A DNA stretch of 25,224 nt from a virus (lineage: Duplodnaviria; Heunggongvirae; Uroviricota; Caudoviricetes): positions 64,001 through 89,224 of the IMG/VR virus record IMGVR_UViG_3300002835_005179; one strand, given 5' to 3'. A model generated the notes under the pieces. The model was given only the letters and a program-made list of their open reading frames with translations, searched no databases and was not told where the DNA came from. Both the position numbers and the translations under genes were made by a program. Shown here in pieces: positions 2,738-20,742 of the stretch (position 1 is the stretch's first letter; each line of letters opens with the position of its first letter).

Positions 2738-3373
2738 TTAACCGTACACTAAACTGTCAATTCTCTTGTAACTAACATTAAATGCATTCATTAGTAATTC
2801 TACTTCTCGTAAACATTCATTTCGTCCACCGCCCATTATGTAAGCACCTTGAAAGCGTTTGAGCTGCGCAACACTTGTCCAATTTATAATAATGGGATCA
2901 TCTGCCATCCAGTCCTGCCATTCTGCGCCCACTAACTGCTTTAACTGTTCTAATTCTAAATCTCTGCTCTCATTGGCTTTGGCTTGATACAGGGCACGGA
3001 TCACTCGGATGATTACAGCTTCACTAACACCCTGATCCATCCAAGTTCTAAAATATCCATACCCTTTGTCGACGATCGTTACTCGATTCCAATTGTCAGG
3101 GTCAAACCCATAGTCTTCCCAAAAATTAATCACGCTTGCTTTGGTATCGTTTGATACTCCAGTTTCCTCAGCATTAATAAACATCAGCACAGGTCCAGTT
3201 TGTTGATTTACAAAATTGATAACTTTTTGACTGATTTTATATGCTTTTGGCATCGAACCCTCAGGTTCATCTCTCTGCTGATAATATGCATAAGCCGGTT
3301 GCACATCCACTACAATACATGGTCTACTTTTGGTTTCATTTATATATTGTTGTTTAAATGATAATATTTTCAT
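2738..3373 (-). CDS. Cysteine-hydrolase (isochorismatase/nicotinamidase)-like protein with a putative capsid-targeting leader
   Basis: IVVDVQ, VDKGYGYF and MGGGRNECL match the spacing of the D-K-C triad. N-terminus MKILSFKQQYINE; late promoter 7 nt upstream. Confidence 0.55.
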   Translation of the reverse strand: MKILSFKQQYINETKSRPCIVVDVQPAYAYYQQRDEPEGSMPKAYKISQKVINFVNQQTGPVLMFINAEETGVSNDTKASVINFWEDYGFDPDNWNRVTIVDKGYGYFRTWMDQGVSEAVIIRVIRALYQAKANESRDLELEQLKQLVGAEWQDWMADDPIIINWTSVAQLKRFQGAYIMGGGRNECLREVELLMNAFNVSYKRIDSLVYG

Positions 3374-3380
3374 ATTTTTA

Positions 3381-3388
3381 TATTTATA
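3381..3388 (-). promoter_or_regulatory. T4 late (gp55) promoter TATAAATA
   Basis: Exact consensus immediately upstream of ATG 3373. Confidence 0.75.
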
Positions 3389-3593
3389 ATATATGAATAG
3401 TTGATCTATTCTCTAATCCCTTTACAAAGTCTTCTAGTAACTCACGGAATATTAATCTTGCATTAACTTTACCGAAATTTGTTTGACCTGTAATCATGAT
3501 CCTTCTATCGATCTCTTCCATTGCTTCATCAATGGTTGCGGGAATTCTACGTTCGTATGACATAGAAGGAATTTTAATAATTTGATCTTCCAT
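3384..3593 (-). CDS. Hypothetical protein downstream of uvsW
   Basis: 69-aa ORF with SD GGAG inside the end of uvsW. Confidence 0.65.
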   Translation of the reverse strand: MEDQIIKIPSMSYERRIPATIDEAMEEIDRRIMITGQTNFGKVNARLIFRELLEDFVKGLENRSTIHIL

Positions 3594-3596
3594 AAT

Positions 3597-5069
3597 TTAC
3601 TCCAATCGTATATCTATTATCTGGTAATCGAAATCTTCAGATGCGTAAACTTTAACTCTTTCAGAGAAATGTTTATATGCAAAATTCTTATGATTATTTA
3701 TACACATATCATCTACAATATCATAAAGAACTGAAGGACCTTCTTTATTCTTAGATAATCTCAGAACTCTTCCGATAGATTGTAATGTTCGAACACGTGA
3801 CTTAGATGGGTGTGTGAATATGATGTTCTGAAGAGATGGTATGTTGATACCAGTTGAGAATATCTGAGATGATGCGACAATAATTCCATTATTGGCATTC
3901 TCGATCGACTTACGAATATCTTCTCGTATTTGTGTTTCTGTTCCACCATATACAAAGTGGACTGGTTTATCAGTCATCTTTTTGATTTGTTCGAATAATG
4001 GTTTACCGTGTGCATCTACTCTTGAGAATAATACAAGAGTGTTTCCCTTCAAAGAAGTTGCTAACTTCGAGATAAATTTGTTGCGTTTCTCGTGCGCTAA
4101 CAAGAAAGATACTTCACCTTCCCAATCAAATCCTTTTGCAACTTTTCTGGTTTCTGGAGAATATCCAAGTAACAAAGCATTTATGTTGAAAGAAGATAAC
4201 TGTTTCTTTGAAATTAGTTGAGAAGTTGTTGTAATCTGGAATGCTTTACCAAACAGCCCTTCAAGTTGAAGTTGATGCAATTTTTCGCCAGAAAGTGTTC
4301 CTGTAAAACCATAACGATGCGATGCATTTACACACTTTTCAAATAACTTTGAAATTTCTTTTGCTGAATATAAATGTGTTTCGTCCCCGATAACTACTTC
4401 AAAGTCTTCGAAATATGATTGTGGGTTGTCATATATTGATTGCCATGTAGATATAACAATCTTACGATCAAATCTTTCTGTTCCTGAGTATATCTTAGTG
4501 ATCTTCTTTTCAGATTCCCAATCAGGAAAATATTCTTTGATGTCGGATGACATCTGCTCAACTAATGATGTTGTTGGACAAATCAGCAATATCTTCCCAT
4601 CTATTTTCTCATAATAGAATTTGATAATAGATGCAATGATCAAGGATTTACCTGATCCTGTTGGCGATAATGCAATAAAACGCTTGGATGTAATGGCACG
4701 CTTAATTGCATCCAATTGGTAATCACGAATTTCTAATGGTTCGTTTCCCGAATAACATTTCAAATTAGAAACAAATTCATCTGCAACAGACTGTTCGTAT
4801 GCAACATTACTGTAATTCTTCAGGATCTTATATTGATTCTCTTCTGTGTATGATTCAATGTAATGTGTGAGACCTTTATGAATTATGTTCTTTCTCTTAT
4901 CATATAGGTGTATCTTGCCGTCCCACATTCTTCTTTTAAATGCAGGCATGTACTTGGCACCAGGAACATCAAATGACAATCTATCATACAATTCCTGTGC
5001 TATACCAGGTTCGGTGTCAACATGAACCCATGTTGCATTCAAAGATGTGAGTGTAAGTTTCATAGCCAA
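3597..5069 (-). CDS. uvsW: UvsW SF2 DNA helicase (ATG start probably at 5063)
   Basis: Walker A SPTGSGKS, IGDETH, GFTGT, STGINIP, QSIGRVLR, and the N-terminal YMPAFKRRMWDGKIHLY. Confidence 0.96.
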   Translation of the reverse strand: MAMKLTLTSLNATWVHVDTEPGIAQELYDRLSFDVPGAKYMPAFKRRMWDGKIHLYDKRKNIIHKGLTHYIESYTEENQYKILKNYSNVAYEQSVADEFVSNLKCYSGNEPLEIRDYQLDAIKRAITSKRFIALSPTGSGKSLIIASIIKFYYEKIDGKILLICPTTSLVEQMSSDIKEYFPDWESEKKITKIYSGTERFDRKIVISTWQSIYDNPQSYFEDFEVVIGDETHLYSAKEISKLFEKCVNASHRYGFTGTLSGEKLHQLQLEGLFGKAFQITTTSQLISKKQLSSFNINALLLGYSPETRKVAKGFDWEGEVSFLLAHEKRNKFISKLATSLKGNTLVLFSRVDAHGKPLFEQIKKMTDKPVHFVYGGTETQIREDIRKSIENANNGIIVASSQIFSTGINIPSLQNIIFTHPSKSRVRTLQSIGRVLRLSKNKEGPSVLYDIVDDMCINNHKNFAYKHFSERVKVYASEDFDYQIIDIRLE

Positions 5070-5078
5070 TCGCTATGA

Positions 5079-5086
5079 TATTTATA
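5079..5086 (-). promoter_or_regulatory. T4 late promoter TATAAATA for uvsW
   Basis: Exact consensus upstream of uvsW. Confidence 0.7.
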
Positions 5087-5088
5087 TA

Positions 5089-5274
5089 CTACTTTTTGTA
5101 TCCAGAAGAATCGCCAAAAACTCTTACATACAAATAGACAAGCTTCTTGACAAGATATGATACACCTAGCACACCCATTGCTTCGTAAAAGATAGCATCG
5201 ACTTCTCTCTTAGAGAATACAGTATCTTTTCCAGAAACCTTCAAACCAAGTTTCTGTGCTCGTCTTAGTTCGTT
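5089..5274 (-). pseudogene. Orphan C-terminal module (DUF1353-like C-terminus) lacking its own convincing start
   Basis: SKREVDAIFYEAMGVLGVSYLVKKLVYLYVRVFG resembles DUF1353 C-termini but the HDxLY core is absent. It begins with NELRRAQK, duplicated from the 429-aa gene. The track's ATG at 5331 overlaps the upstream gene. Confidence 0.5.
5255..5274. repeat. 20-bp direct repeat, copy 1
   Basis: tgtgctcgtcttagttcgtt, identical to 6519-6538. Confidence 0.95.
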
Positions 5275-5275
5275 T

Positions 5276-6565
5276 TTAGTTTTCTGCTTGTTGATTGAAT
5301 TTCTGTTTGAATTTTTCGTATTCTTTGGCATAATACGAGCTTTTCTTGATTACATTTTCTGCCTCAGGCCAAGGCCTTTTTAATACGTCAAACGCATACA
5401 AAGCAGCATAATCTGCTTTTTGTAATATATATTTTTCTGCCTGTTCAAATCTACCTTTCAATATTTCTGTGGCATAATCATACGCCAATTCAGGATCTTG
5501 TGCAATTGCGTCTTCTCCTTTCGGAAAACGACCTTTTAATACATATCTTGAATATCTATATGCAAGTAGAGAATCTTTTGCGATTCCATCTTCACCTTTT
5601 GGAAATGGACCATTCAATGAATATCTTGCATAATTGTAAGACGTTTCAGGATCTTTTGCAATAGACTCTTCGCCTTTTGGAAACGGTCCGTTCAAGATGT
5701 ATCTTGAATACTCGTACGCTATTACTGGATCTTTTGCAATAGACTCTTCGCCTTTTGGAAACGGTCCGTTCAAGATGTATTTTGAATACTCGTACGCTAT
5801 TACTGGATCTGTTGCTAATATGTCTTCTCCAAATTTCGGTACTTTTCTTGTTTGTTTGTATTTGTTTACAACAAACTGCCACACAGAATCTATATTATTT
5901 TTATCGACATCTATATATTGTTTGTTTTCAAATCGTCTCACAACTTTTGCTACAGTTGAATCAAGTATAACACCTTGTGTTGGTTCGTTGACGTGAATGA
6001 TACCGTCGCCTGCATTATCAATAACAACTTTCACACCCAAAGTGTTTCTCAATACACTTGTCCATCTTCTTGGATTATCGTCTGCTGCAAAAAATGATAG
6101 AAACCACCATATACCGCCGGATGTCTGAACTCTTGCATCGTCTTTTGCGTCTCTCAAAATACTTTTGTAATTGTCTTTAAACAGAATCTTTGCGGCGGCT
6201 TCTACGACATCATTTGTAACATTATCCAAAAATACAATATGTTCTTCTTTAGTATCTATTCTTATGATGTTGATAAATGGAGCTTCGTGTTGAAAAGGAA
6301 GTGTTACAGTATTCAAGTAATACTTTGCCGGATAAAAATACACACCAATTGGTGTGTTGTAGTATTCAGATCTTGGATTGATTCCAACCTTAGGGATCTT
6401 GGTCATTGTTACACCATAAAGATCAAGATCTACTCCTTGATCTTCTAAGTTGTGTAAATAAGTTCTGGCTGCAGAATGTCCAAACTCTGCAGCCTTATTT
6501 ACAGCCAGTCCAACTTTTTGTGCTCGTCTTAGTTCGTTGATGAAAGATTTGAAGTGTTTTTGCAT
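5276..6565 (-). CDS. Putative virion-internal protein: capsid-targeting-like leader, possible ART-like domain and C-terminal 26-aa helical repeats
   Basis: Leader MQKHFKSFINE; motifs TPIGVYFYP and IHVNEPTQGVIL; about 6 repeats of type FPKGEESIAKDPVIAYEYSRYILNGP. Confidence 0.6.
   Translation of the reverse strand: MQKHFKSFINELRRAQKVGLAVNKAAEFGHSAARTYLHNLEDQGVDLDLYGVTMTKIPKVGINPRSEYYNTPIGVYFYPAKYYLNTVTLPFQHEAPFINIIRIDTKEEHIVFLDNVTNDVVEAAAKILFKDNYKSILRDAKDDARVQTSGGIWWFLSFFAADDNPRRWTSVLRNTLGVKVVIDNAGDGIIHVNEPTQGVILDSTVAKVVRRFENKQYIDVDKNNIDSVWQFVVNKYKQTRKVPKFGEDILATDPVIAYEYSKYILNGPFPKGEESIAKDPVIAYEYSRYILNGPFPKGEESIAKDPETSYNYARYSLNGPFPKGEDGIAKDSLLAYRYSRYVLKGRFPKGEDAIAQDPELAYDYATEILKGRFEQAEKYILQKADYAALYAFDVLKRPWPEAENVIKKSSYYAKEYEKFKQKFNQQAEN
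5649..5804. repeat. Near-perfect 78-bp tandem duplication
   Basis: 5649-5726 versus 5727-5804, with one mismatch. Confidence 0.95.
6519..6538. repeat. 20-bp direct repeat, copy 2
   Basis: Identical to 5255-5274; encodes NELRRAQ just after the leader. Confidence 0.95.
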
Positions 6566-6577
6566 ATAATTATAAAG

Positions 6578-6585
6578 TATTTATT
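6578..6585 (-). promoter_or_regulatory. Late promoter variant AATAAATA
   Basis: Overlaps the uvsY stop, 12 nt upstream of ATG 6565. Confidence 0.6.
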
Positions 6586-7012
6586 AGAATTCACCTGCAT
6601 CAAACTTCAACATTTGGATAGCATTCTTGATTGAAAACTCACGTTGTTCTATGCCACGCAAGATTTTTTCTAAACAAAATATCTTTTCTTTTTGTGATTG
6701 TATATTGTAATTCAAATCAGACAATTCTTGATCTGCGTCTAGATACATATCAATATCTTGTCTCAAAACTTTAATATCGAAAGGTTTTTCATTATACACC
6801 TCTTCAGGTGCTTTACCAGAATAATATTCCCACTTATCCCTTTTCAATTCAGCAAATTTCTTATTCATTTTATGAAGAAGAACCTTTTCAGAACGATAGA
6901 TATCCAAGAATCTCATGAGAATGTTTGGAGTTCTAGTCGCTTCTTCACCAAGCTTAAATCTATCAATCTTTAATTCTTGTTCGGCTAAGTCTTGTATTTC
7001 TTTATATTTCAT
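6584..7012 (-). CDS. uvsY: Recombination mediator UvsY
   Basis: KWEYYSGKA, PFDIKVLRQDIDMYLDAD and IKNAI motifs; about 140 aa. Confidence 0.92.
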   Translation of the reverse strand: MKYKEIQDLAEQELKIDRFKLGEEATRTPNILMRFLDIYRSEKVLLHKMNKKFAELKRDKWEYYSGKAPEEVYNEKPFDIKVLRQDIDMYLDADQELSDLNYNIQSQKEKIFCLEKILRGIEQREFSIKNAIQMLKFDAGEF

Positions 7013-7673
7013 ATTTCAAATTTCCAAGATATTTGTCCATAATGTCTTTCAATGCTGTGTAATAATTAGATCTATTCACTTTAAAAATAATTGGTTGCGA
7101 ATCATATGTACACATAAGGATTACAATTTGTTTTATTTTTATACCAGTCATTTCTTCAAACATCAAAGAATACGCTGTTCCTTGTACGAAATAATTTGTA
7201 ATCCATTCTTCTTTCTTTTCTTTTCTGGAAGTTTTAAAGTCTATGATAGAAGGAATACCATCAAACTCCGCAATACAATCAGTTCTCCCGGCTAAACCAA
7301 GTGTATCCGAATACAATGAAGCTTCTTGTGTGTATATGTTATCTATTCTATCAAGAGTGTCCTGCATAGAAGAGAACATATATTTAGAATGTATTGTTGT
7401 TTTTTCTAAGAAATTTGGATCATTATCTAAATATTTTTCAATAACATAATGTAGATTTTCGCCCAATGCACAGGCGTATTCTGAGATTTGTTTTGCATTT
7501 TCTTCTCCAATAGATTTCTTCCAAGATTCTATAGATTCTTTAGAAGTTTGACCCAAGAGAGTCGTGATAGAAGGCATCAGTTTACCTGATGGTGTAACAT
7601 AATACCTTCGATTATTAATCTCTTGGGTCAATAGATTTGGTAGATTTATTTTATTGTGTTTGAATGACTTCAC
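7002..7673 (-). CDS. PD-(D/E)XK exonuclease (cyanophage exonuclease A-like); GTG start
   Basis: RYY..PSG..MPSITT, AGRTDCIAEFDG..SIIDFKTS and YFVQGTAY. Confidence 0.88.
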   Translation of the reverse strand: MKSFKHNKINLPNLLTQEINNRRYYVTPSGKLMPSITTLLGQTSKESIESWKKSIGEENAKQISEYACALGENLHYVIEKYLDNDPNFLEKTTIHSKYMFSSMQDTLDRIDNIYTQEASLYSDTLGLAGRTDCIAEFDGIPSIIDFKTSRKEKKEEWITNYFVQGTAYSLMFEEMTGIKIKQIVILMCTYDSQPIIFKVNRSNYYTALKDIMDKYLGNLKYEI

Positions 7674-7679
7674 TTATAT

Positions 7680-7708
7680 ATTATAATATATTATTTTGTA
7701 TAATACAA
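7680..7708 (-). promoter_or_regulatory. Sigma70-like promoter, probably leaderless
   Basis: TTGTAT-N17-TATAAT-N6-GTG. Confidence 0.6.
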
Positions 7709-7710
7709 AT

Positions 7711-8146
7711 TTATTTTGATTTTTCTATACTTCTCACATAGGTGTCTACTTGTTTTAGAATATCTTCTAATTTAGATAGATCTTTGCCGGATCCAGTCGT
7801 ATTTTCTAATTCTAAGTCTTTTTGACGACCAGATTCCCAATCTCCTGAATATTTCTTTACATACACTCTATGAGAAGTTGCATATAGTGGATCATCAGGA
7901 ACACTCCAAACTTTATCGAATGATAAATATGATGTATTTTTTTGACCAAATGATTTATATCCATATTTCTTAAGAAGAGAATATATTTTCTTAGCTTCAG
8001 GTGAAGTTGTTCCTTCATCATCTAGATAAGCTTCTTCTAATACTTCCTCTACAATAGCTTTGATGTAATCCTTCAGATCGTTATCTTGTTCTTTTGATTC
8101 TGAAATTACTTTCAAATACGATTCTTTAAATTTTTTTTATGTCCAT
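7711..8146 (-). CDS. Hypothetical putative internal head protein, frameshifted in an A8 run near its start
   Basis: SD AAGGAG then ATG at 8146. Removing one A from the run at 8131-8138 gives MDIKKFKESYLKVISESK, in frame with ORF 7711-8115. Confidence 0.65.
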
Positions 8147-8151
8147 TCAAA

Positions 8152-8862
8152 TTACTCCTTAGAATTATTTATTAATTTATTAAATTCTGTTAACAATTTA
8201 TCAACGGAACTATTTTTCTTAGTTGCAATCAATCTTAAATTTTTATTATTATATAGCTTGTCTATTTCTGTATCAAAGTTCTTTAATTGAAATGCATTTC
8301 TTGCTTCTAGAGTTGAACTAGATTCATACAACCAAACAGATATATTCGGATCAGAATTTAAATTAGACCAAAGTTTTCGTGCACCTTTACTATGATCATC
8401 AGACATCACGGTCCAATCTTCAATTTCTATTAAACCTTTATATAGAGCATAGCCTATTCCTTGACCTTGATATTTTGGTTGAACTATAGCAATTTTAATT
8501 TTATTAATTAATTTGATATTTTTACCAATTTTGATATTAGTACCATATACACTCAACATAGCTATAGGTTCATCAAGATCTGGATTATTATCTGTTCTCT
8601 TAACAACAAATACATTTATATCGCTTTTATTTGTAGAAAGATGTGAATATTTTACCGGAAACAATCCAATATCTGATTCAATCCTATCTAATCTTTTAAA
8701 TTTGAAAAATTTTAATGAATTAGACCAAATATTTTTAAGTTCTGATGACAAGAATCTAGATTTAGATTTATATTCATTTTTGGTCAACTCTTTGATTTGA
8801 TAATAATCTTTTGATTCAGAAACAATTTTTAAATATAATTCTTTGAAACTCTTTAAATTCAT
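8152..8862 (-). CDS. GNAT-family acetyltransferase with a capsid-targeting-like leader
   Basis: Acetyl-CoA motif A IVQPKYQGQGIGYALY and SKGARKLW; leader MNLKSFKELYLKIVSE. Confidence 0.75.
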   Translation of the reverse strand: MNLKSFKELYLKIVSESKDYYQIKELTKNEYKSKSRFLSSELKNIWSNSLKFFKFKRLDRIESDIGLFPVKYSHLSTNKSDINVFVVKRTDNNPDLDEPIAMLSVYGTNIKIGKNIKLINKIKIAIVQPKYQGQGIGYALYKGLIEIEDWTVMSDDHSKGARKLWSNLNSDPNISVWLYESSSTLEARNAFQLKNFDTEIDKLYNNKNLRLIATKKNSSVDKLLTEFNKLINNSKE

Positions 8863-8863
8863 T

Positions 8864-9613
8864 TTAGTCCTTAGACTTATTTATTAATAATTCATCTTCA
8901 ACTTGAGATTTTGCGATGATAAATGATTTAACTATTCCTGAACGGACTATATCTTCTATACCAAATTCAATTATATCAAATTCCGGCATCTTCTCAATAA
9001 TCTTCATAAAATGTGGTAGTCCAGAAACGTCCCACTTAGATTTAATTAGATCGTTTTGTAACCAATCTCCACAAAAGAAAATCTTAGTATTCTTACCAAC
9101 ACGTGTTATAACTGTTTCCAGCTCCTGCTCACTACAGTTCTGGAACTCGTCAAGAATAATAAATGTATCATTTATGGTTGTTCCACGTAAGAAAGAAGTA
9201 GAACAAAATTCAACAATTCCTTTTGTTTTTAAGATTTCAAATGCATCTCCTCTACCAAATAATTCTGCGAAGATACCACGATAAGGATCTTCATATACAG
9301 CCATCTTTTCTTTCAGAGTTCCTGGCAAAAATCCAACGTCTCTTGATGAAACAGTTGATCGAATAATCATTATTTTTGTTGGATGTTCGTTAGCAGTTCT
9401 ATCTCTCTTTATTAATTCTGAGAGAGCCAAATACAATGATATATAAGTTTTACCAGTTCCCGCCGAACCACAAAGAACAAGATTATAACCTTCTCCAAAA
9501 GCATCAAAGACATCTTGCTGAGCTTCTGTAATAGGTTGTATCTTTTTCAAAGAAAATGAATTATCTATTGTTGGTTCCAAATTATTTTTGGAGTTTCTTG
9601 GTTTTCTTGACAT
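8864..9613 (-). CDS. phoH: PhoH-family ATPase
   Basis: GSAGTGKT, GFLPGTLKEK, FLRGTT, LDEFQN, GDWLQND and DIVRSGIV. Confidence 0.95.
   Translation of the reverse strand: MSRKPRNSKNNLEPTIDNSFSLKKIQPITEAQQDVFDAFGEGYNLVLCGSAGTGKTYISLYLALSELIKRDRTANEHPTKIMIIRSTVSSRDVGFLPGTLKEKMAVYEDPYRGIFAELFGRGDAFEILKTKGIVEFCSTSFLRGTTINDTFIILDEFQNCSEQELETVITRVGKNTKIFFCGDWLQNDLIKSKWDVSGLPHFMKIIEKMPEFDIIEFGIEDIVRSGIVKSFIIAKSQVEDELLINKSKD
8878..8885 (-). promoter_or_regulatory. Late promoter variant AATAAATA inside the phoH 3' end
   Basis: Followed by SD AAGGA and ATG 8862. Confidence 0.6.
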
Positions 9614-15738: not shown

Positions 15739-15925
15739 TATTGATTTAGAAATGATGGAATCCTTTAAGAAAGGAGAAGGCCCAATGATATGGGTCACAC
15801 ATGAAGGAAGAACCTATTTCAATATTAATAAATTCATGAAATCTGAAAAAGGAAAACAAGTTATCTACGATCTTAAACTCTTTTCAGAAAGACATAATTT
15901 GAGACCTTGGAGCGGAATAGATTAG
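15707..15925 (+). CDS. Hypothetical protein
   Basis: 72-aa ORF overlapping the previous stop. Confidence 0.55.
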   Translation: MIQFITNFFRDIDLEMMESFKKGEGPMIWVTHEGRTYFNINKFMKSEKGKQVIYDLKLFSERHNLRPWSGID

Positions 15926-16012
15926 GAGGATGCTGGGGTTGGCTCCCCACACAGTCTAGAAAACTGTAGTATCTCTAACGGGATAATAGTTCGATGCTAT
16001 CATCCTCCTCCA
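15925..16012 (+). tRNA. tRNA-Ser(AGA) with non-canonical 8/4 acceptor/T-stem and long variable arm
   Basis: Acceptor ggaggatg/catcctcc (8 bp), D stem gggg/cccc, anticodon stem acagt/actgt with loop CT-AGA-AA, V stem tatctc/gggata, T stem atag/ctat with TTCGATG loop, then T-CCA. Confidence 0.88.
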
Positions 16013-16572: not shown

Positions 16573-16662
16573 GGAAAATTGGCAGAGTGGTATTGCACCT
16601 GATTGCTAATCAGTGGTCGTCCTGAAAGGGATGCACAAGTTCGAATCTTGTATTTTCCGCCA
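16573..16662 (+). tRNA. tRNA-Ser(GCT)
   Basis: Canonical 7/5 cloverleaf, long V arm, loop TT-GCT-AA, G73, CCA encoded. Confidence 0.93.
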
Positions 16663-16691
16663 TTGCTTTTTTGTTGTAAATATACTATAAT
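16663..16691 (+). promoter_or_regulatory. Sigma70-like promoter for tRNA-Ile/AAA ATPase
   Basis: TTGCTT-N17-TATAAT. Confidence 0.7.
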
Positions 16692-16702
16692 AGTATTGTA
16701 GT

Positions 16703-16777
16703 GGACGAGTAGCTTAGAGGTAAAGCGTTCGACTGATAATCGAAAGACCGACGGTTCGATCCCTTCCTCGTCCACCA
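16703..16777 (+). tRNA. tRNA-Ile(GAT)
   Basis: ggacgag/ctcgtcc acceptor, loop CT-GAT-AA, A-CCA. Confidence 0.93.
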
Positions 16778-16806
16778 AATTGAATAATAAGTAAAGGATA
16801 ATAATC

Positions 16807-17868
16807 ATGAGTCTATTTGTTAAGAATGGGAGTAATTATCGAGTTACATCGAATGAGAATTTAGATGTGCGAACGATGTTACCAGCAGGAACTTATAATG
16901 TTAATTATGATACTATGAAGAATGAGTTTTCTTTGAATCATATTGAATCTTTTGACATTCCTAATAAATTGTATGGCGATCTAACAAAGAATCGTGATCG
17001 AATTCTGAATACATTCAACGATCGAGAATCTTCAACTGGTGTTATTTTGTGTGGTGAAAAGGGTTCGGGAAAATCTCTTCTAGCAAAAGCTATCTGTATT
17101 TCTGCAGCCGAACAAGGAATTCCGACTATCATCATTAGTCAACCATGGTTTGGCGACACGTTTAACACTTTCGTTCAATCAATTAAACAATCTGCAATTA
17201 TTTTCTTCGACGAATTCGAGAAAGTTTATTCGGGGAAAGAGGCTCAAGAAGCTATTCTAACGCTTTTCGATGGTGTTTATCCAACCAAGAAAATGTTTAT
17301 TTGTACTTGTAATGATAAATTCAAGATTGATTATAATATGAAAAATCGACCAGGAAGAATCTATTACATGCTAGATTTTACTGGACTAGAAGTATCATTC
17401 GTTCGTGATTATTGTGAAGAAAATCTAATCAACAAGTCTAATATCAATTCAGTTTGTAATCTATCAATGGCATTCAATAACTTCAATTTCGATATGTTGA
17501 AAGCTATTGTTGAAGAAATGAATCGATATGACGAAACAGCAAATGAAGTAATTAAGGTTATTAACACCAAAATGGAATTCGTTTCTCCTTCTAAATATAA
17601 GATCGAGTTCACACCAAACCGTGAGTTGAATATCCAAGAAGGTAGCGTTGAGAAAATATATACTGGAAATCCTATTACTAATAATGTGCTACTAAATTAT
17701 TATATTGTTGAGGGTGATGGTGAGATGTATGGTCAAACCACTTTCTCGCCAAATGAAATTGTTGTGTTAGATCCTTCTGGAAAAGTCGTCTATGTTAATT
17801 CTGCTGGCGATAAGTTGGTCTTGATCAAAGAAGAAACGAAATTAGTTATGCGAAATTTCGCATTCTAA
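16807..17868 (+). CDS. AAA+ ATPase
   Basis: Walker A GEKGSGKS, Walker B IFFDEFEK and NRPGRI. Confidence 0.9.
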   Translation: MSLFVKNGSNYRVTSNENLDVRTMLPAGTYNVNYDTMKNEFSLNHIESFDIPNKLYGDLTKNRDRILNTFNDRESSTGVILCGEKGSGKSLLAKAICISAAEQGIPTIIISQPWFGDTFNTFVQSIKQSAIIFFDEFEKVYSGKEAQEAILTLFDGVYPTKKMFICTCNDKFKIDYNMKNRPGRIYYMLDFTGLEVSFVRDYCEENLINKSNINSVCNLSMAFNNFNFDMLKAIVEEMNRYDETANEVIKVINTKMEFVSPSKYKIEFTPNRELNIQEGSVEKIYTGNPITNNVLLNYYIVEGDGEMYGQTTFSPNEIVVLDPSGKVVYVNSAGDKLVLIKEETKLVMRNFAF

Positions 17869-17874
17869 TAAATA
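17867..17874 (+). promoter_or_regulatory. Possible late promoter AATAAATA for tRNA-Thr/Gln
   Basis: Ends 6 nt before the tRNA-Thr 5' end. Confidence 0.45.
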
Positions 17875-17880
17875 GAGGGT

Positions 17881-17955
17881 GCTGCGATAGCTCAATGGTA
17901 CAGCAGCAGTTTAGTAAACTGCAGATTGACGGTTCGATCCCGTCTCGCAGCTCCA
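17881..17955 (+). tRNA. tRNA-Thr(AGT)
   Basis: gctgcga/tcgcagc acceptor, gcagt/actgc stem, loop TT-AGT-AA, T-CCA. Confidence 0.92.
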
Positions 17956-17962
17956 ACTTTGA

Positions 17963-18036
17963 TGGGGTGTAGCTTAATGGTAAAGCATCCGACTTTGACT
18001 CGGAGTATGGGAGTTCGATTCTCTCCACCCTAACCA
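17963..18036 (+). tRNA. tRNA-Gln(TTG)
   Basis: T1-A72 acceptor, loop CT-TTG-AC, CCA encoded. Confidence 0.92.
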
Positions 18037-18054
18037 CTTAATATAGAGAATAAT

Positions 18055-18624
18055 ATGAAATATCTTTTTTGTGATACAGAAACAAGCGGAATCGATCCAT
18101 CTAAGCATGGAATTATCCAAATTGCTGGTTTAATTGACATTGATGGGGAAATCAAAGAATCTTTTGATATTAAGATACAACCCTTTCCAAATCAATTGAT
18201 CTCAAAAGAATCTATGAAGATCAATGGACTTACTGTAGAGGATCTTAAGACATTTCATAAACCACAAGAAGGTTACGCCTTATTGACTGAAATATTTTCG
18301 AAGTATATTTCTAAGTTTGATAAAACAGATAAGTTCTTTTTCGTTGGGTATAATTCAAATTTCGATGATTCATTTCTAAGACAATTCTTTATTAATTCTG
18401 GAGATGAATATTATGGTTCTTGGATTTGGTGGCCGACAATTGATGTATCATCATTTGCTATGGAATTTTTGAAGGAAGAAAGATCTAAGTTTCCAAATTT
18501 CAAATTGGCAACTGTTGCAAAGGCTTTTGGTATCTCAGTTGATGAATCTAGATTACATGAAGCAGTATATGATTCAATTTTAACTCGCTCCATATATCGA
18601 AAGATGATTCTTGGGATTGACTAA
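18055..18624 (+). CDS. DEDDh 3'-5' exonuclease (Pol III epsilon-like)
   Basis: CDTETSG, GYNSNFD and HEAVYD. Confidence 0.9.
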   Translation: MKYLFCDTETSGIDPSKHGIIQIAGLIDIDGEIKESFDIKIQPFPNQLISKESMKINGLTVEDLKTFHKPQEGYALLTEIFSKYISKFDKTDKFFFVGYNSNFDDSFLRQFFINSGDEYYGSWIWWPTIDVSSFAMEFLKEERSKFPNFKLATVAKAFGISVDESRLHEAVYDSILTRSIYRKMILGID

Positions 18625-18662
18625 ATTGTATTTTTAAGTTAAAATAAATATGGGAGAATACT

Positions 18663-18953
18663 ATGATTAAAGTGAATGTATATGGAAAGAATTATGTTCT
18701 TGATTTCGCTTACTCTATGGATGAGCGTGCAGAAATGAATTCAGGTAGGATTACAAAAGCAATGTTATTTGAAGATCTTGGAAATAAGAAAGATCAAAAT
18801 TATTCCAAACCTGATTATATCGGTGTAGCAATGAAACATCCTAAGGATCGAGATGTTAAGGAAAATGCGAGAAAGGCTGCAATTCGGAAGCTAGTCTCTC
18901 GGTTTGATTATGAAACTCGTTCATCTGTGTGGGCAGCTTATTTTGCACGATGA
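18663..18953 (+). CDS. Hypothetical protein
   Basis: 96-aa ORF with SD GGAG. Confidence 0.7.
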   Translation: MIKVNVYGKNYVLDFAYSMDERAEMNSGRITKAMLFEDLGNKKDQNYSKPDYIGVAMKHPKDRDVKENARKAAIRKLVSRFDYETRSSVWAAYFAR

Positions 18954-18982
18954 TAAATATTAAATAATTTATGGAGAGATAG

Positions 18983-19486
18983 ATGACTGTTCTTGTTTTA
19001 AATTCACAATATTTGCCCATACAAACAACTTCGGTAAAGAAAGCTGTAAAATTGATTTATCGTGGTGTTGCTGTGGCAGAGAAGTACACAGAACAAGTAT
19101 GGAAATCTATCTCTTCAGAAATGATTCTTCCGGCTGTTATTCGTCTAATCAATTTTCATAGATTACCGAATAGATCTTATAAGTTATCTAAGAAGAATAT
19201 TCTCATCAGAGATAGATATACTTGCCAATATTGTCAGGGAATCTTCTCTGAAAGAACTCTGACATTAGATCATGTTATTCCAAAATCAAAGGGTGGATCT
19301 TCTCGTTGGGAAAATTTAGTTGCCGCTTGTAGAAAGTGTAATTCTAAGAAAGCCGATAAGACACCCGAAGAAGCGTGCATGAGATTGTTGTCGAAACCAA
19401 TGAAATTGACAGTCCACACTCACACAACAATATTGAGAAATAAAGGAGAATCAAGACCAGAGTGGTCTGAGTTCTTATTCAATTAA
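18983..19486 (+). CDS. HNH endonuclease
   Basis: RDRYTCQYC, DHVIPKSKGG and WENLVAACRKCNSKK. Confidence 0.93.
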   Translation: MTVLVLNSQYLPIQTTSVKKAVKLIYRGVAVAEKYTEQVWKSISSEMILPAVIRLINFHRLPNRSYKLSKKNILIRDRYTCQYCQGIFSERTLTLDHVIPKSKGGSSRWENLVAACRKCNSKKADKTPEEACMRLLSKPMKLTVHTHTTILRNKGESRPEWSEFLFN

Positions 19487-19497
19487 GGAATATATGT

Positions 19498-19791
19498 ATG
19501 AATAATTTTATAGATGATCTTGATATTTTTTGGAATATATTGAGATATATTGTAACGATTGGTGTAATAGCCTTATTTACTGTAAGTTTCTTGTATTCAG
19601 GAAAACAGGAATCATATTATATCTCTCAAGAATCTAATAGCAAAACGCAATTTTATTGTGTGTATGCGGATATTAATTGGAGGCCAGATCAACTAATTTA
19701 TTGCTCAGGGAATATTGTTAATGTCTTGATGATTAAGAATGCAGTGTCTTCACAGACACAGAATGATTCTTTAGAAAAGAAAGTCGATTAA
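19498..19791 (+). CDS. Hypothetical membrane protein
   Basis: One hydrophobic segment ILRYIVTIGVIALFTVSFLY; SD AAGGA. Confidence 0.7.
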   Translation: MNNFIDDLDIFWNILRYIVTIGVIALFTVSFLYSGKQESYYISQESNSKTQFYCVYADINWRPDQLIYCSGNIVNVLMIKNAVSSQTQNDSLEKKVD

Positions 19792-19795
19792 CAAT

Positions 19796-19871
19796 AGTTC
19801 CATAACTCAATGGTTAGAGTGCTTACCTTATAAGCAAGTGGTTCTCGGTTCGAATCCGAGTGTGACTACCA
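19796..19871 (+). tRNA. tRNA-Ile(TAT), with two stem mismatches
   Basis: Loop CT-TAT-AA, T arm ctcgg-TTCGAAT-ccgag, A-CCA; C:T mismatch in acceptor and A:C mismatch in anticodon stem. Confidence 0.82.
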
Positions 19872-19874
19872 AAT

Positions 19875-19949
19875 GCCCCTATAGTTCAACGGAAAGAACA
19901 CTAGTCTACGAAACTAAAGATCCAAGTTCAAGTCTTGGTAGGGGTTCCA
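19875..19949 (+). tRNA. tRNA-Arg(ACG)
   Basis: gccccta/taggggt acceptor, loop CT-ACG-AA, CCA encoded. Confidence 0.9.
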
Positions 19950-20083: not shown

Positions 20084-20104
20084 GAGCCGAAAGGCTCATT
20101 TTTT
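20084..20104 (+). terminator. Rho-independent terminator
   Basis: gagcc-GAAA-ggctc followed by a T tract. Confidence 0.8.
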
Positions 20105-20115
20105 GCATTTAAACT

Positions 20116-20213
20116 ATATTCTCTTTAGAATCAATGACTTGCGCCAAGTGATTGACAACAAAGAGAATATTCTTTCGAAAAAACTTTGTCCTGTGATCCG
20201 TTCGAGGTATAAT
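20116..20213 (+). promoter_or_regulatory. Long hairpin plus early promoter module, copy B
   Basis: Arms atattctcttt/aaagagaatat around the same core palindrome, then TTTGTC-N17-TATAAT-N6-ATG. Confidence 0.8.
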
Positions 20214-20219
20214 GGTTCT

Positions 20220-20669
20220 ATGGAATTTGAACAACTGAAATCTATCTTTCCTGACGCAACGCTCGAGACCTGGCATCAGCATCCGAACGGAGGAGGCTGG
20301 GTCGAGAATACAGCGACAGTAGAGGAGACAGCGTTCGTTGGACCGAACGCTGTCGTCTCTGGGTTCGCTTCGGTCTCTGGGGACGCTCGGGTCTCTGGGA
20401 ACGCTCGGGTCTTTGGGGACGCTTGGGTCTTTGGGAACGCTCGAGTCTCTGAGACCGCTTCGGTCTCTGGGAAAGCTTTGGTCTCTGGGGACGCTTCGGT
20501 CTTTGGGGACGCTTGGGTCTCTGGGACCGCTTGGGTCTCTGGGACCGCTTCGGTCTCTGGGTTCGCTTCGGTCTCTGAGGAAGCTTGGGTCTCTGGGGAA
20601 GCTTCGGTCTCTGGGAACGCTTCGGTCTCTGGGAACGCTTCGGTCTCTGGATCTACAGTCTTGAAATAA
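20220..20669 (+). CDS. Left-handed beta-helix (hexapeptide repeat) protein; true start 20220
   Basis: About 17 AxV(S/F)Gx repeats after HPNGGGWV; ATG 6 nt after the -10 box. Confidence 0.85.
   Translation: MEFEQLKSIFPDATLETWHQHPNGGGWVENTATVEETAFVGPNAVVSGFASVSGDARVSGNARVFGDAWVFGNARVSETASVSGKALVSGDASVFGDAWVSGTAWVSGTASVSGFASVSEEAWVSGEASVSGNASVSGNASVSGSTVLK
20345..20650 (+). repeat. 18-bp tandem repeat array (core gtctctggg)
   Basis: Imperfect gcttcggtctctgggaac units encoding the hexapeptide. Confidence 0.9.
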
Positions 20670-20674
20670 ATTTC

Positions 20675-20742
20675 AAGTCACTCATTCTAAACCAGATATT
20701 CTTTCGAAAAAACTTGCTTCGATTCTTTGAGTACGCTATAAT
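20675..20742 (+). promoter_or_regulatory. Degenerate hairpin/promoter module, copy C
   Basis: caagtca-N15-atattctttcgaaaaaa-c-TTGCTT-N17-TATAAT aligns without gaps to copy A. Confidence 0.75.

Follow-up and report, generated by a model that had tools for sequence, protein, structure and literature searches.

The window analyzed here is a stretch of 25,224 nucleotides, bases 64001 to 89224 of an 89,224-bp virus contig (IMG/VR record IMGVR_UViG_3300002835_005179) with a guanine-plus-cytosine (G+C) content of approximately 33%. The contig is that of an uncultured freshwater T4-like myophage, encoding terminase, tail sheath and tube, portal, a Peptidase_S77 prohead protease, a T4-type scaffold, and gp23, and the window itself carries genes for gp32, a gp59-like loader, UvsW, UvsY, PhoH, CobS/CobT, the clamp, and the clamp loader. 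Within it, four genes on the minus strand (those of proteins 1 to 3 and gene 4) were found to begin with related N-terminal leaders ending in [I/V]-x-Glu (Table 1), at the starts given in a preliminary description that had been made from the sequence. The leaders are 11, 13, 16, and 16 residues long and end in I-N-E, I-N-E, V-S-E, and I-S-E, respectively, and so have the properties of T4 propeptides, which are 10 to 19 residues long and are cut by gp21 at the motif L/I-x-E, a site of this kind also being present near the N-terminus of gp21 itself (PMC9026906). The V at P3 is a conservative departure from L/I-x-E. Two classes of leader were distinguished: class 1 has 10 to 13 residues and includes MKSFKQFLIE, MQKHFKSFINE, and MKILSFKQQYINE, and class 2 has 16 residues, follows the pattern ...F-K-E-x-Y-L-x-[IV]-[IV]-S-E-S, and is common to the protease and the small acidic head-module proteins of the contig. 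The leader core in this phage is lineage specific and contains Lys, reading F-K-x-F/Y-I/L-x-E.

Table 1. Leader genes, associated motifs, and other features of the window and contig (positions are those of the window unless marked "genome," which refers to the whole contig)
Feature	Position	Strand	Description
Protein 1 (211 aa)	2738-3373	-	13-residue leader MKILSFKQQYINE (3335-3373), then isochorismatase-like (cysteine hydrolase) domain, predicted
Protein 2 (429 aa)	5276-6565	-	11-residue leader MQKHFKSFINE (6533-6565), then LRRAQK segment
Protein 2 domains	~5918-6481; ~5291-5836	-	N-domain, weakly ART-like; C-terminal helical repeats, 78-nt tandem units
Protein 3 (236 aa)	8152-8862	-	16-residue leader MNLKSFKELYLKIVSE (8815-8862), then GNAT-like domain with QGQGIG
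Gene 4	7711-8146	-	Leader MDIKKFKESYLKVISE (8098-8146), interrupted by extra A in A8 run 8131-8138
TATAAATA	3381-3388	-	Late-promoter-like; 7 nt before protein 1 ATG
AATAAATA	6578-6585	-	Late-promoter-like; 12 nt before protein 2 ATG
AATAAATA	8878-8885	-	Within last phoH codons; 15 nt before protein 3 ATG
AATAAATA	8166-8173	-	Within last codons of GNAT-like gene; 19 nt before ATG 8146
Duplicated promoter, ribosome-site, and leader cassette	8090-8176 and 8807-8888	-	Copies flank GNAT-like gene body
80-aa ORF	5089-5331	-	Overlaps protein 2 end; repeats NELRRAQK(L/V)G junction; weak DUF1353 match (E value, 8e-4)
MNLENFKQAYVKTISE	genome 7676		Overlaps portal gene end
MNLENFKEAYLTVINE	genome 13070		After gp23
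MLSFKSFLILE	genome 24770		Pattern match
MKSFKQFLIE	genome 31967		Protein with C-terminal GH19 domain
MLFKEFSNHIVE	genome 44239		Pattern match; paralogue of protein 3
MNSFTKAYMEVLNE	genome 30000		Further candidate leader
MTKNEFIAKINE	genome 38450		Further candidate leader
30-codon ORF	genome 33298-33390	+	Has MKSFKSFVTE
Six tRNA genes	16573-19949	+	Found with ARAGORN
G+C-rich island	20100-20700	+	G+C 0.47 versus ~0.33

A prohead protease and a scaffold of the T4 type are encoded on the same contig. The Peptidase_S77 match (genome 8971-9612) has an E value of 9.7e-33, and the protease itself starts with MKLLTEVNEFIKIVSE followed by SAEG; the T4_CASP scaffold and Gp23 were matched at E values of 3e-40 and 8e-140, respectively, and in gp23 the sequence I-I-T-E followed by S lies eleven residues before the start of the Pfam domain. 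The capsid-targeting sequence (CTS) of T4 is MKTYQEFIAE (PMC8442874), in which positions 4 and 7 are important to targeting, and positions 8 and 10 to processing (PMC9026906). Compared with this sequence, MKSFKQFLIE carries aromatic residues at positions 4 and 7, I/L at position 8, and E at position 10, so that its F4 and F7 align exactly with the T4 CTS, while MQKHFKSFINE and MKILSFKQQYINE need one to two extra residues; the resemblance is one of sequence. When the CTS Glu of T4 is exchanged for Asp, processing is blocked but targeting is retained.

The pattern that the preliminary description had put forward for these leaders, M-x(1,4)-FK-x(2,6)-[ILV]-x-E, was borne out across the contig, where it matched the starts of 8 of the 125 genes, 5 of which lie outside the region from which it was drawn (Poisson P, ~3e-6). 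N-termini that were shuffled with their composition kept gave a mean of 0.22 matches with a maximum of 3 in 2000, and the pattern was found at 1 of 487 internal Met positions and in 0 of 145 off-frame open reading frames (ORFs). The protein at genome 13070-13327, whose gene follows gp23, has 85 amino acids and is very acidic. In the complete genome of Pelagibacter phage HTVC008M, no comparable leader set was found, the matches being solely background [IL]-x-E and its protease, and its small proteins encoded after the portal and capsid genes are without the 16-residue leader; the tag of this lineage is thus not general to marine pelagimyophages. A scan with a position matrix also brought up a 30-codon ORF directly after the leader-tagged GH19 gene, which starts MVSMKSFKSFVTE followed by KKFADLKPTKGK; from its sequence, it possibly encodes a tiny basic tagged peptide, likely missed by gene callers.

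Homologues of protein 1 were identified in metagenomes (n = 767, with 50 to 98% identity). Nearly all of the best 120 start M-[RK]-x-x-E-[FIL]-[IL]-x-E, after which the strand IVVDVQP directly follows, and in 110 of 112 homologues [ILV]-x-E lies 6 to 7 residues ahead of this first strand. The residue at P3 was I in 58, L in 47, and V in 5 sequences, that at P1' was G, N, T, S, or A, and the leaders were mostly 8 to 11 residues long. For the N-domain of protein 2, 1820 cluster representatives were found at E values of <1e-3 (clusters at 50% identity), most of which start M[KR]xxE[LFI][IL]xE[AL]RRNPE, as in MRANEFITEARRNPEQN and MKIHEIITELRSNPEKN, and a loose M...[ILV]-x-E fits 112 of the best 150. 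The leader Glu (E11 or E13) is nearly invariant in both alignments, and in the AlphaFold2 models the leaders are of low confidence (predicted local distance difference test [pLDDT], ~50; protein 1 leader, ~49) and lie outside the well-predicted domains. Just behind the leader Glu, most relatives of protein 2 carry [AL]-R-R-N-P-E-x-N, a segment that is predicted to be disordered and in which R13 is nearly invariant; residues 12 to 18 of protein 2 may serve as a further site of processing or as a contact with the DNA or the core.

To survey how far the leader extends beyond these two families, 73 IMG/VR loci around protein 1 homologues were used (1.15 Mb; 1583 genes). The strict motif M[KR]x(2,3)[ED][FILVMY][ILVMF]xE was found to start 138 of the 1583 genes, in 40 sequence clusters; 61 of these are relatives of protein 1, and the other 77 fall into 39 other clusters. 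In the same loci, the shuffled control gave 0.36 matches, and the motif was present at 4 of 7707 internal Met positions. All five of the large records with a protein 1 homologue (145 to 353 kb, two with terminal repeats) encode Peptidase_S77. Since the leader keeps its pattern and its distance to the fold even though its nucleotides and most of its residues change, the alignments indicate that it is under selection as a peptide; its occurrence in 40 sequence clusters indicates that it is portable across unrelated cargoes.

Proteins with a leader of this kind have been detected in the virions of a Campylobacter phage, IBB_35. Protein 3 is homologous to gp042 of phage CP220 (E value, 5e-11 over the C-terminal 103 residues), which forms one set with the adjacent gp043 and with genes 2-4 and 2-3 of phage IBB_35; all four start MKFSDFLEEQAIAK and have the leader MKFSDFLEE. 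In purified IBB_35 virions, 38 proteins were identified by electrospray ionization-tandem mass spectrometry, including the products of genes 2-3 (20.4% coverage) and 2-4 (7.7%) (Carvalho et al. 2012; PMC3322345, Table S2). Both genes agree with that table by exact mass, and no other gene with the strict motif was found among the 148 ORFs of the three IBB_35 contigs covered, which make up approximately three-quarters of the genome. Another IBB_35 virion protein, 1-56 (L093:39251-40417; 388 amino acids, annotated as hypothetical, 17% coverage), starts MKLSELMFILE followed by GG, which resembles the MLSFKSFLILE followed by GG of the 330-amino-acid protein of the present phage at genome 24770-25762. 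The cargo of the latter was considered as a homologue of 1-56 and rejected, as no homology was found and the leaders alone are alike.

A late promoter had been described upstream of three of the four leader genes in the window. The motif was found where expected, but the count was too low, as all four have NATAAATA 7 to 19 nucleotides before the ATG. Across the contig, NATAAATA is present no more than 45 nucleotides upstream of 20 of the 125 genes, comprising seven of nine leader genes versus 13 of 116 others (Fisher P, 3e-5), and the two exceptions among the leader genes sit in operons behind genes that have NATAAATA. From this placement, motifs of the NATAAATA type may function as late promoters.

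The cargoes behind the leaders had been described as cysteine-hydrolase-like, ADP-ribosyltransferase-like (ART-like) with repeats, and GNAT, and structure prediction agreed with the first of these assignments. The AlphaFold2 model of protein 1 (pLDDT, 90) was compared with 48,161 chains using VIA-align, and ranks 1 to 28 were all members of the nicotinamidase, isochorismatase, or carbamoylsarcosine amidase family (Z, 7.5 to 9.1), the matches spanning 122 to 140 residues of a three-layer alpha/beta fold, with the next Z falling to 6.8. No match at an E value of ≤1e-3 was obtained with Foldseek against the PDB, and no Pfam Isochorismatase match was obtained, Pfam giving solely a chance match to DDE_Tnp_1 (E value, 0.037). 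In an alignment of 40 sequences, D23, K103, and C187 are invariant, and these match the family triad by sequence order, lying at the end of strand 1, in midchain, and in G-G-x-x-x-C. Protein 1 may thus be, at best, a distant isochorismatase-like amidohydrolase, a structural relative of the family according to its model. Neither Pfam nor PHROGs provided a usable family for protein 1, protein 2, or gene 4.

For protein 2, the repeats were confirmed, the C-terminal half consisting of 26-residue helical repeats that resemble a HEAT/LRV-like solenoid in the Atlas. The best match of its N-domain (AlphaFold2 pLDDT, 83) is a region of a large outer ejection protein in the pre-ejectosome of cyanophage A4 (9k3a_B; Foldseek E value, 3.9e-4; VIA Z, 6.9 over 146 residues), with 12 to 15% identity and moderate scores. 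The next VIA rows, making up most of the top 30, have the ART fold (NatT, ParT, MbcT, diphtheria-type toxins, PARPs, and the anti-CRISPR entry 6kyf), at Z values of 4 to 5.6, which are below the safe level of the tool, and Foldseek E values of ≥0.03. Because of these Z values, the ART-like assignment was kept as a weak lead. T55, K59, G61, N63, T71, P72, Y78, W154, W168, D183, and E194 are invariant in the protein 2 family, and H191 is nearly so. Protein 3 was likewise retained as a GNAT-like lead: it carries Q-G-Q-G-I-G at residues 132 to 137 (compare Q/R-x-x-G-x-G/A of acetyl-coenzyme A motif A), and in the Atlas its feature score was 0.95, with 10 of the 10 best families being GNAT and TM scores of 0.57 to 0.60 to viral N-acetyltransferase clusters (model pLDDT, 0.67). 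The Pfam matches fell short of the curated cutoffs (Acetyltransf_7, 18.3 bits versus a cutoff of 27; Acetyltransf_10 and Acetyltransf_1, also below theirs). A paralogue of protein 3 is encoded at genome 44239-45051 (E value, 9e-9) and has the other leader class.

Gene 4 reads MDIKK(A)FKESYLKVISE from its ATG and continues through if one A of the A8 run is removed; otherwise, a TAA at 8126-8128 closes the frame, and the longest uninterrupted ORF, which begins at TTG 8115, has 134 codons open. The reconstruction of this fourth leader in the preliminary description is justified because a close relative (locus L007) carries an intact orthologue of 148 amino acids, starting MNINKLKESYLEVISE followed by SKEQDNDLKNYIKGIVEE, directly after phoH (L007:3051-3497). 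In four metagenome runs from lakes (2016, 2020, and 2024), three of which may be the source sample itself, contigs span the region from 7600 to 8900, including the A8 run, with 0 mismatches and 0 gaps, and an error of sequencing or assembly was ruled out as the cause of the frameshift by these four concordant assemblies. Repair by -1 ribosomal frameshifting was also rejected, as the -1 frame reaches a TGA after six codons; the frame is restored solely by a +1/-2 shift or by the loss of one A in the RNA. The ratio of nonsynonymous to synonymous substitution rates (dN/dS) of the ORF was 0.35 relative to the L007 orthologue, compared with 0.06 to 0.18 for neighboring core genes; by this measure, gene 4 was a rapidly evolving coding gene through most of its past. 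It could now be a recent pseudogene, a gene controlled by slippage, or a gene yielding a leaderless product from TTG 8115, and as a side reading, the fixed A8 frameshift would be a slippage switch that sets the amount of tagged protein. The first 70 residues of gene 4 are paralogous to the postportal protein at genome 7676-8068 (E value, 1e-6), and no family was found for the remainder. The proposal that gene 4 encodes an injected enzyme is the less likely one: since it is frameshifted and a paralogue of a small acidic postportal protein, it is, judging from its sequence, more likely a head-core component.

Several features of the window bear on how the cargoes are exchanged. The two copies of the promoter, ribosome-site, and leader cassette share 48 nucleotides at 77% and 32 nucleotides at 88% identity, are 712 to 717 nucleotides apart, and include the 3' end of phoH with the embedded promoter; the GNAT-like gene ends ...LINNSKE, resembling the ...LINKSKD of phoH. 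The junction NELRRAQK is repeated behind protein 2 (5246-5274 versus 6510-6538; 29 nucleotides, 93% identical), where the 80-amino-acid ORF is probably, from its sequence, the remnant of an earlier cargo or a recombination joint. In L007, gene 4 directly follows phoH and uvsW directly follows uvsY, and the GNAT-like gene, protein 2, and the 80-amino-acid ORF are absent from this locus. Between the protein 1 gene and L007:7177-7812, identity is 98% and the synonymous divergence (dS) is ~0, whereas the flanking uvsW and uvsY have a dS of ~1.5, from which it follows that the cargo gene moves between genomes; CobS shares 99% amino acid identity with its L007 counterpart (dS, 0.04) and PhoH shares 96% (dS, 0.24). 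On these comparisons, the genomes of this phage and L007 are mosaics with recent exchange of segments that include the protein 1 gene. The duplicated cassette, the repeated 29-nucleotide junction, the gene content of L007, and the dS of protein 1 indicate exchange of cargoes by recombination within the promoter-leader cassette. A similar recombinational exchange was reportedly described by Repoila et al. in 1994 for the internal-protein locus of T-even phages.

We consider it likely that the shared N-termini are T4-type capsid-targeting and prohead-protease propeptides that carry new cargoes. By their sequences, about ten late proteins, including the three enzymes in the window, carry the tag and would probably be loaded into the virion and delivered along with the DNA; for the delivery of the enzymes into the host taken by itself, we see the chances as evenly divided. 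The small acidic proteins with a 16-residue leader, gene 4 included, may be components of the head core. The proposal of a modular set of head-packaged, injected enzymes is therefore kept for the T4-type leader on exchangeable cargoes, in view of the S77 protease, scaffold, and gp23, of the conservation and portability of the leader, of the placement of the late-promoter motifs, and of the leader-bearing homologues of the GNAT-like cargo detected in virions, and is held to be less likely for gene 4. From these comparisons, we infer a course in which the protein binds to the core, is cleaved at the Glu, stays in the head, and is ejected, followed by enzyme action. The tagged genes would be transcribed late, and the leader would tie the nascent protein to the gp22-like scaffolding core while the gp23 shell assembles. 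Peptidase_S77 would then cut after the Glu of [I/L/V]-x-E, with the leader exiting the head and the folded cargo remaining among the DNA, and enzyme cargoes would leave via the tail with the genome and take effect as soon as the next infection begins. Together, the promoter, the ribosome site, and the leader would form one short DNA cassette, within which recombination could swap cargo genes or insert them between conserved replication genes.

A number of observations weigh against this interpretation. The leaders here carry Lys where T4 and most metagenomic leaders carry Glu, two of them end in V-S-E and not in I/L-x-E, and a position matrix built from the last eight leader residues was discarded as a detector because the set is too heterogeneous (leave-one-out scores, -2.5 to 15.5). 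Background matches to a loose [IL]-x-E are frequent among the first 18 residues of proteins, as was seen in HTVC008M. The 7-mer ATAAATA occurs 15 times in the window versus 14.9 expected, for which reason motif abundance was dropped as evidence and placement is left as the ground for the promoters, and the motif of protein 1, only 7 nucleotides from the ATG, would give a nearly leaderless mRNA. A tblastn search of approximately 50,700 sequenced phage records found no relative of protein 1 or protein 2. Gene 4 is frameshifted, and together with the other proteins that have a 16-residue leader, it is small, acidic, and core-like rather than effector-like. Finally, the mass spectrometry of IBB_35 speaks to presence in the virion and not to head location, cleavage, or ejection.

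One rival explanation is that the leaders mark solely components of head assembly, core or scaffold, which enter the prohead, are processed, and are then used in assembly or degraded and expelled and are not delivered as effectors. The 16-residue leader is indeed common to the protease and to the small acidic postportal protein, at the place where gp67 and gp68, two core proteins, are encoded in T4; gene 4 is paralogous to this postportal protein, the 85-amino-acid protein encoded behind gp23 is very acidic, and the core proteins of T4 are also cut at L/I-x-E (PMC9026906). The three other cargoes, however, are predicted to have compact, conserved, enzyme-like folds with invariant residues of the catalytic type, which fit a disposable scaffold poorly, and, in contrast to assembly genes, the cargo genes vary from one close relative to another and can be dispensed with. 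Moreover, T4 proteins with a single N-terminal cut, the internal proteins and Alt, are retained and injected (PMC8442874 and PMC9026906). As an account of all the tagged proteins, a role confined to head assembly is thus unlikely.

A second rival explanation is that the 5' ends are alike because a mobile unit of promoter, ribosome site, and start spreads genes by recombination, or because they are an RNA or translation-start element of late genes, the peptide having no sorting role. The duplication at the DNA level of the whole cassette on both sides of the GNAT-like gene, the repeat of the junction behind protein 2, and the recent transfer suggested by the protein 1 gene would all be accounted for in this way. 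Against it stands the behavior of the leader in hundreds of homologues, in which, despite changes in the nucleotides and in most residues, the basic position 2, the acidic/aromatic core, I/L/V-x-E, and the distance to the fold are maintained; the same pattern is found in phages as distant as T4 and the Campylobacter phages and is almost absent from internal Met positions. We therefore hold an explanation at the level of DNA or RNA to be very improbable. That the N-termini are alike by chance would call upon the base composition, as a G+C content of ~33% makes Lys, Phe, Ile, Asn, and Glu common and a loose [IL]-x-E frequent near the N-terminus. Shuffled sequences gave 0.22 matches versus the 8 found, five of them outside the region, and 0.36 versus 138 in the loci of the relatives, by which chance is effectively refuted.

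If capsid-targeting propeptides of this type work as they do in T4, the proteins that accompany phage DNA could be listed from the sequence alone, even for uncultured phages. Injected proteins act before transcription and are therefore prime candidates for counter-defense (T4 IPI), host takeover (T4 Alt), and wall breaching (the GH19 protein encoded elsewhere on the contig). The window adds three cargoes of the enzyme type, two of which come from large unannotated families whose members are nearly always tagged. A wider reading, to which we give less credence than not, is that the cassette is a general gene-capture device in T4-type phages, from those of 150 kb in freshwater to jumbo phages of 350 kb, that makes any enzyme a virion-delivered first-strike effector, with the two large families tagged as a rule; were it true, the hydrolase family and the ART-like family with the RRNPE motif would act on NAD-related or signaling metabolites or on host proteins before phage expression. 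No paper on tagged enzyme sets in environmental T4-like phages was found in a literature search that was incomplete. The kind of system is known and its spread was foreseen in the T4 literature, a review of T4 head assembly having suggested the CTS as a general loading route for T4-like phages; what is new here is the cargo families.

The stretch covered by the window was found in 24 lake-water metagenome runs from 2016 to 2024. Its closest cultured relatives are distant, with UvsW sharing 45% identity with that of Methylophilales phage Melnitz, Pelagibacter phage HTVC008M, and cyanomyophages, and a megablast search of the region against the approximately 50,700 phage records gave no match. 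The six tRNA genes are Ser-GCT, Ile-GAT, Thr-AGT, Gln-TTG, Ile-TAT, and Arg-ACG; ARAGORN reported no tRNA at 15925-16012. The G+C-rich island encodes a 188-amino-acid protein of VSG[DN]A[RW]V-type repeats, and its overlapping frame reads (RSLGTLGSLG)n.

Among known systems, the internal proteins of T4 are similar in having a tag of approximately 10 residues that carries aromatics near positions 4 and 7 and ends in I/L-x-E, a gp21-type S77 protease and a gp22-type scaffold in the same genome, late-promoter motifs, and hypervariable, nonessential cargoes behind a conserved leader. They differ in that the cargoes here are enzyme-like, of 20 to 50 kDa, and without detectable similarity to the small basic internal proteins, the core of the leader reads F-K-x-F/Y in place of Y-Q-E-F, there is another leader class, of 16 residues, and the tagged genes are scattered among replication genes and known here from sequence. 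General scans with Pfam and PHROGs, which involved no direct comparison with T4 sequences, found no internal-protein, ART, or Alt family among the cargoes; belonging to the T4-type capsid-targeting kind needs no homology of the cargo. Alt is a head-packaged, injected ADP-ribosyltransferase that is processed by gp21 at both ends (PMC9026906), and like it, the cargoes here are of the enzyme type rather than small inhibitors, protein 2 having an N-domain with a weakly ART-like predicted fold, although the ART assignment rests on Z values of 4 to 5.6 and protein 2 adds a helical repeat domain.

In the giant phages phiKZ, 201phi2-1, and SPN3US, ejection (E) proteins are cut at S/A-x-E by proteases related to gp21 (PMC9026906, PMC5694885, and PMC10052503). 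As proposed here, many head-packaged proteins are defined by a cut after Glu and the repertoire is predictable from sequence, whereas their propeptides are long and diverse without a common short tag, the cleavage motif is another, and those phages possess an inner body or bolus. The structure matched best by the protein 2 N-domain, the pre-ejectosome protein of cyanopodophage A4 (PDB 9k3a, chain B), is internal to the capsid and ejected with the DNA (PMC12002296); A4 is a podovirus, however, in which large core proteins come together on the portal independently of any CTS or prohead protease. In the Campylobacter phages, the genes are annotated as hypothetical and lie after the baseplate gene 6, and the leader is of the acidic T4 type; unlike in these respects, they share with the present phage the homologues of protein 3 and a CTS-like leader, on proteins that in IBB_35 were found in virions by mass spectrometry.

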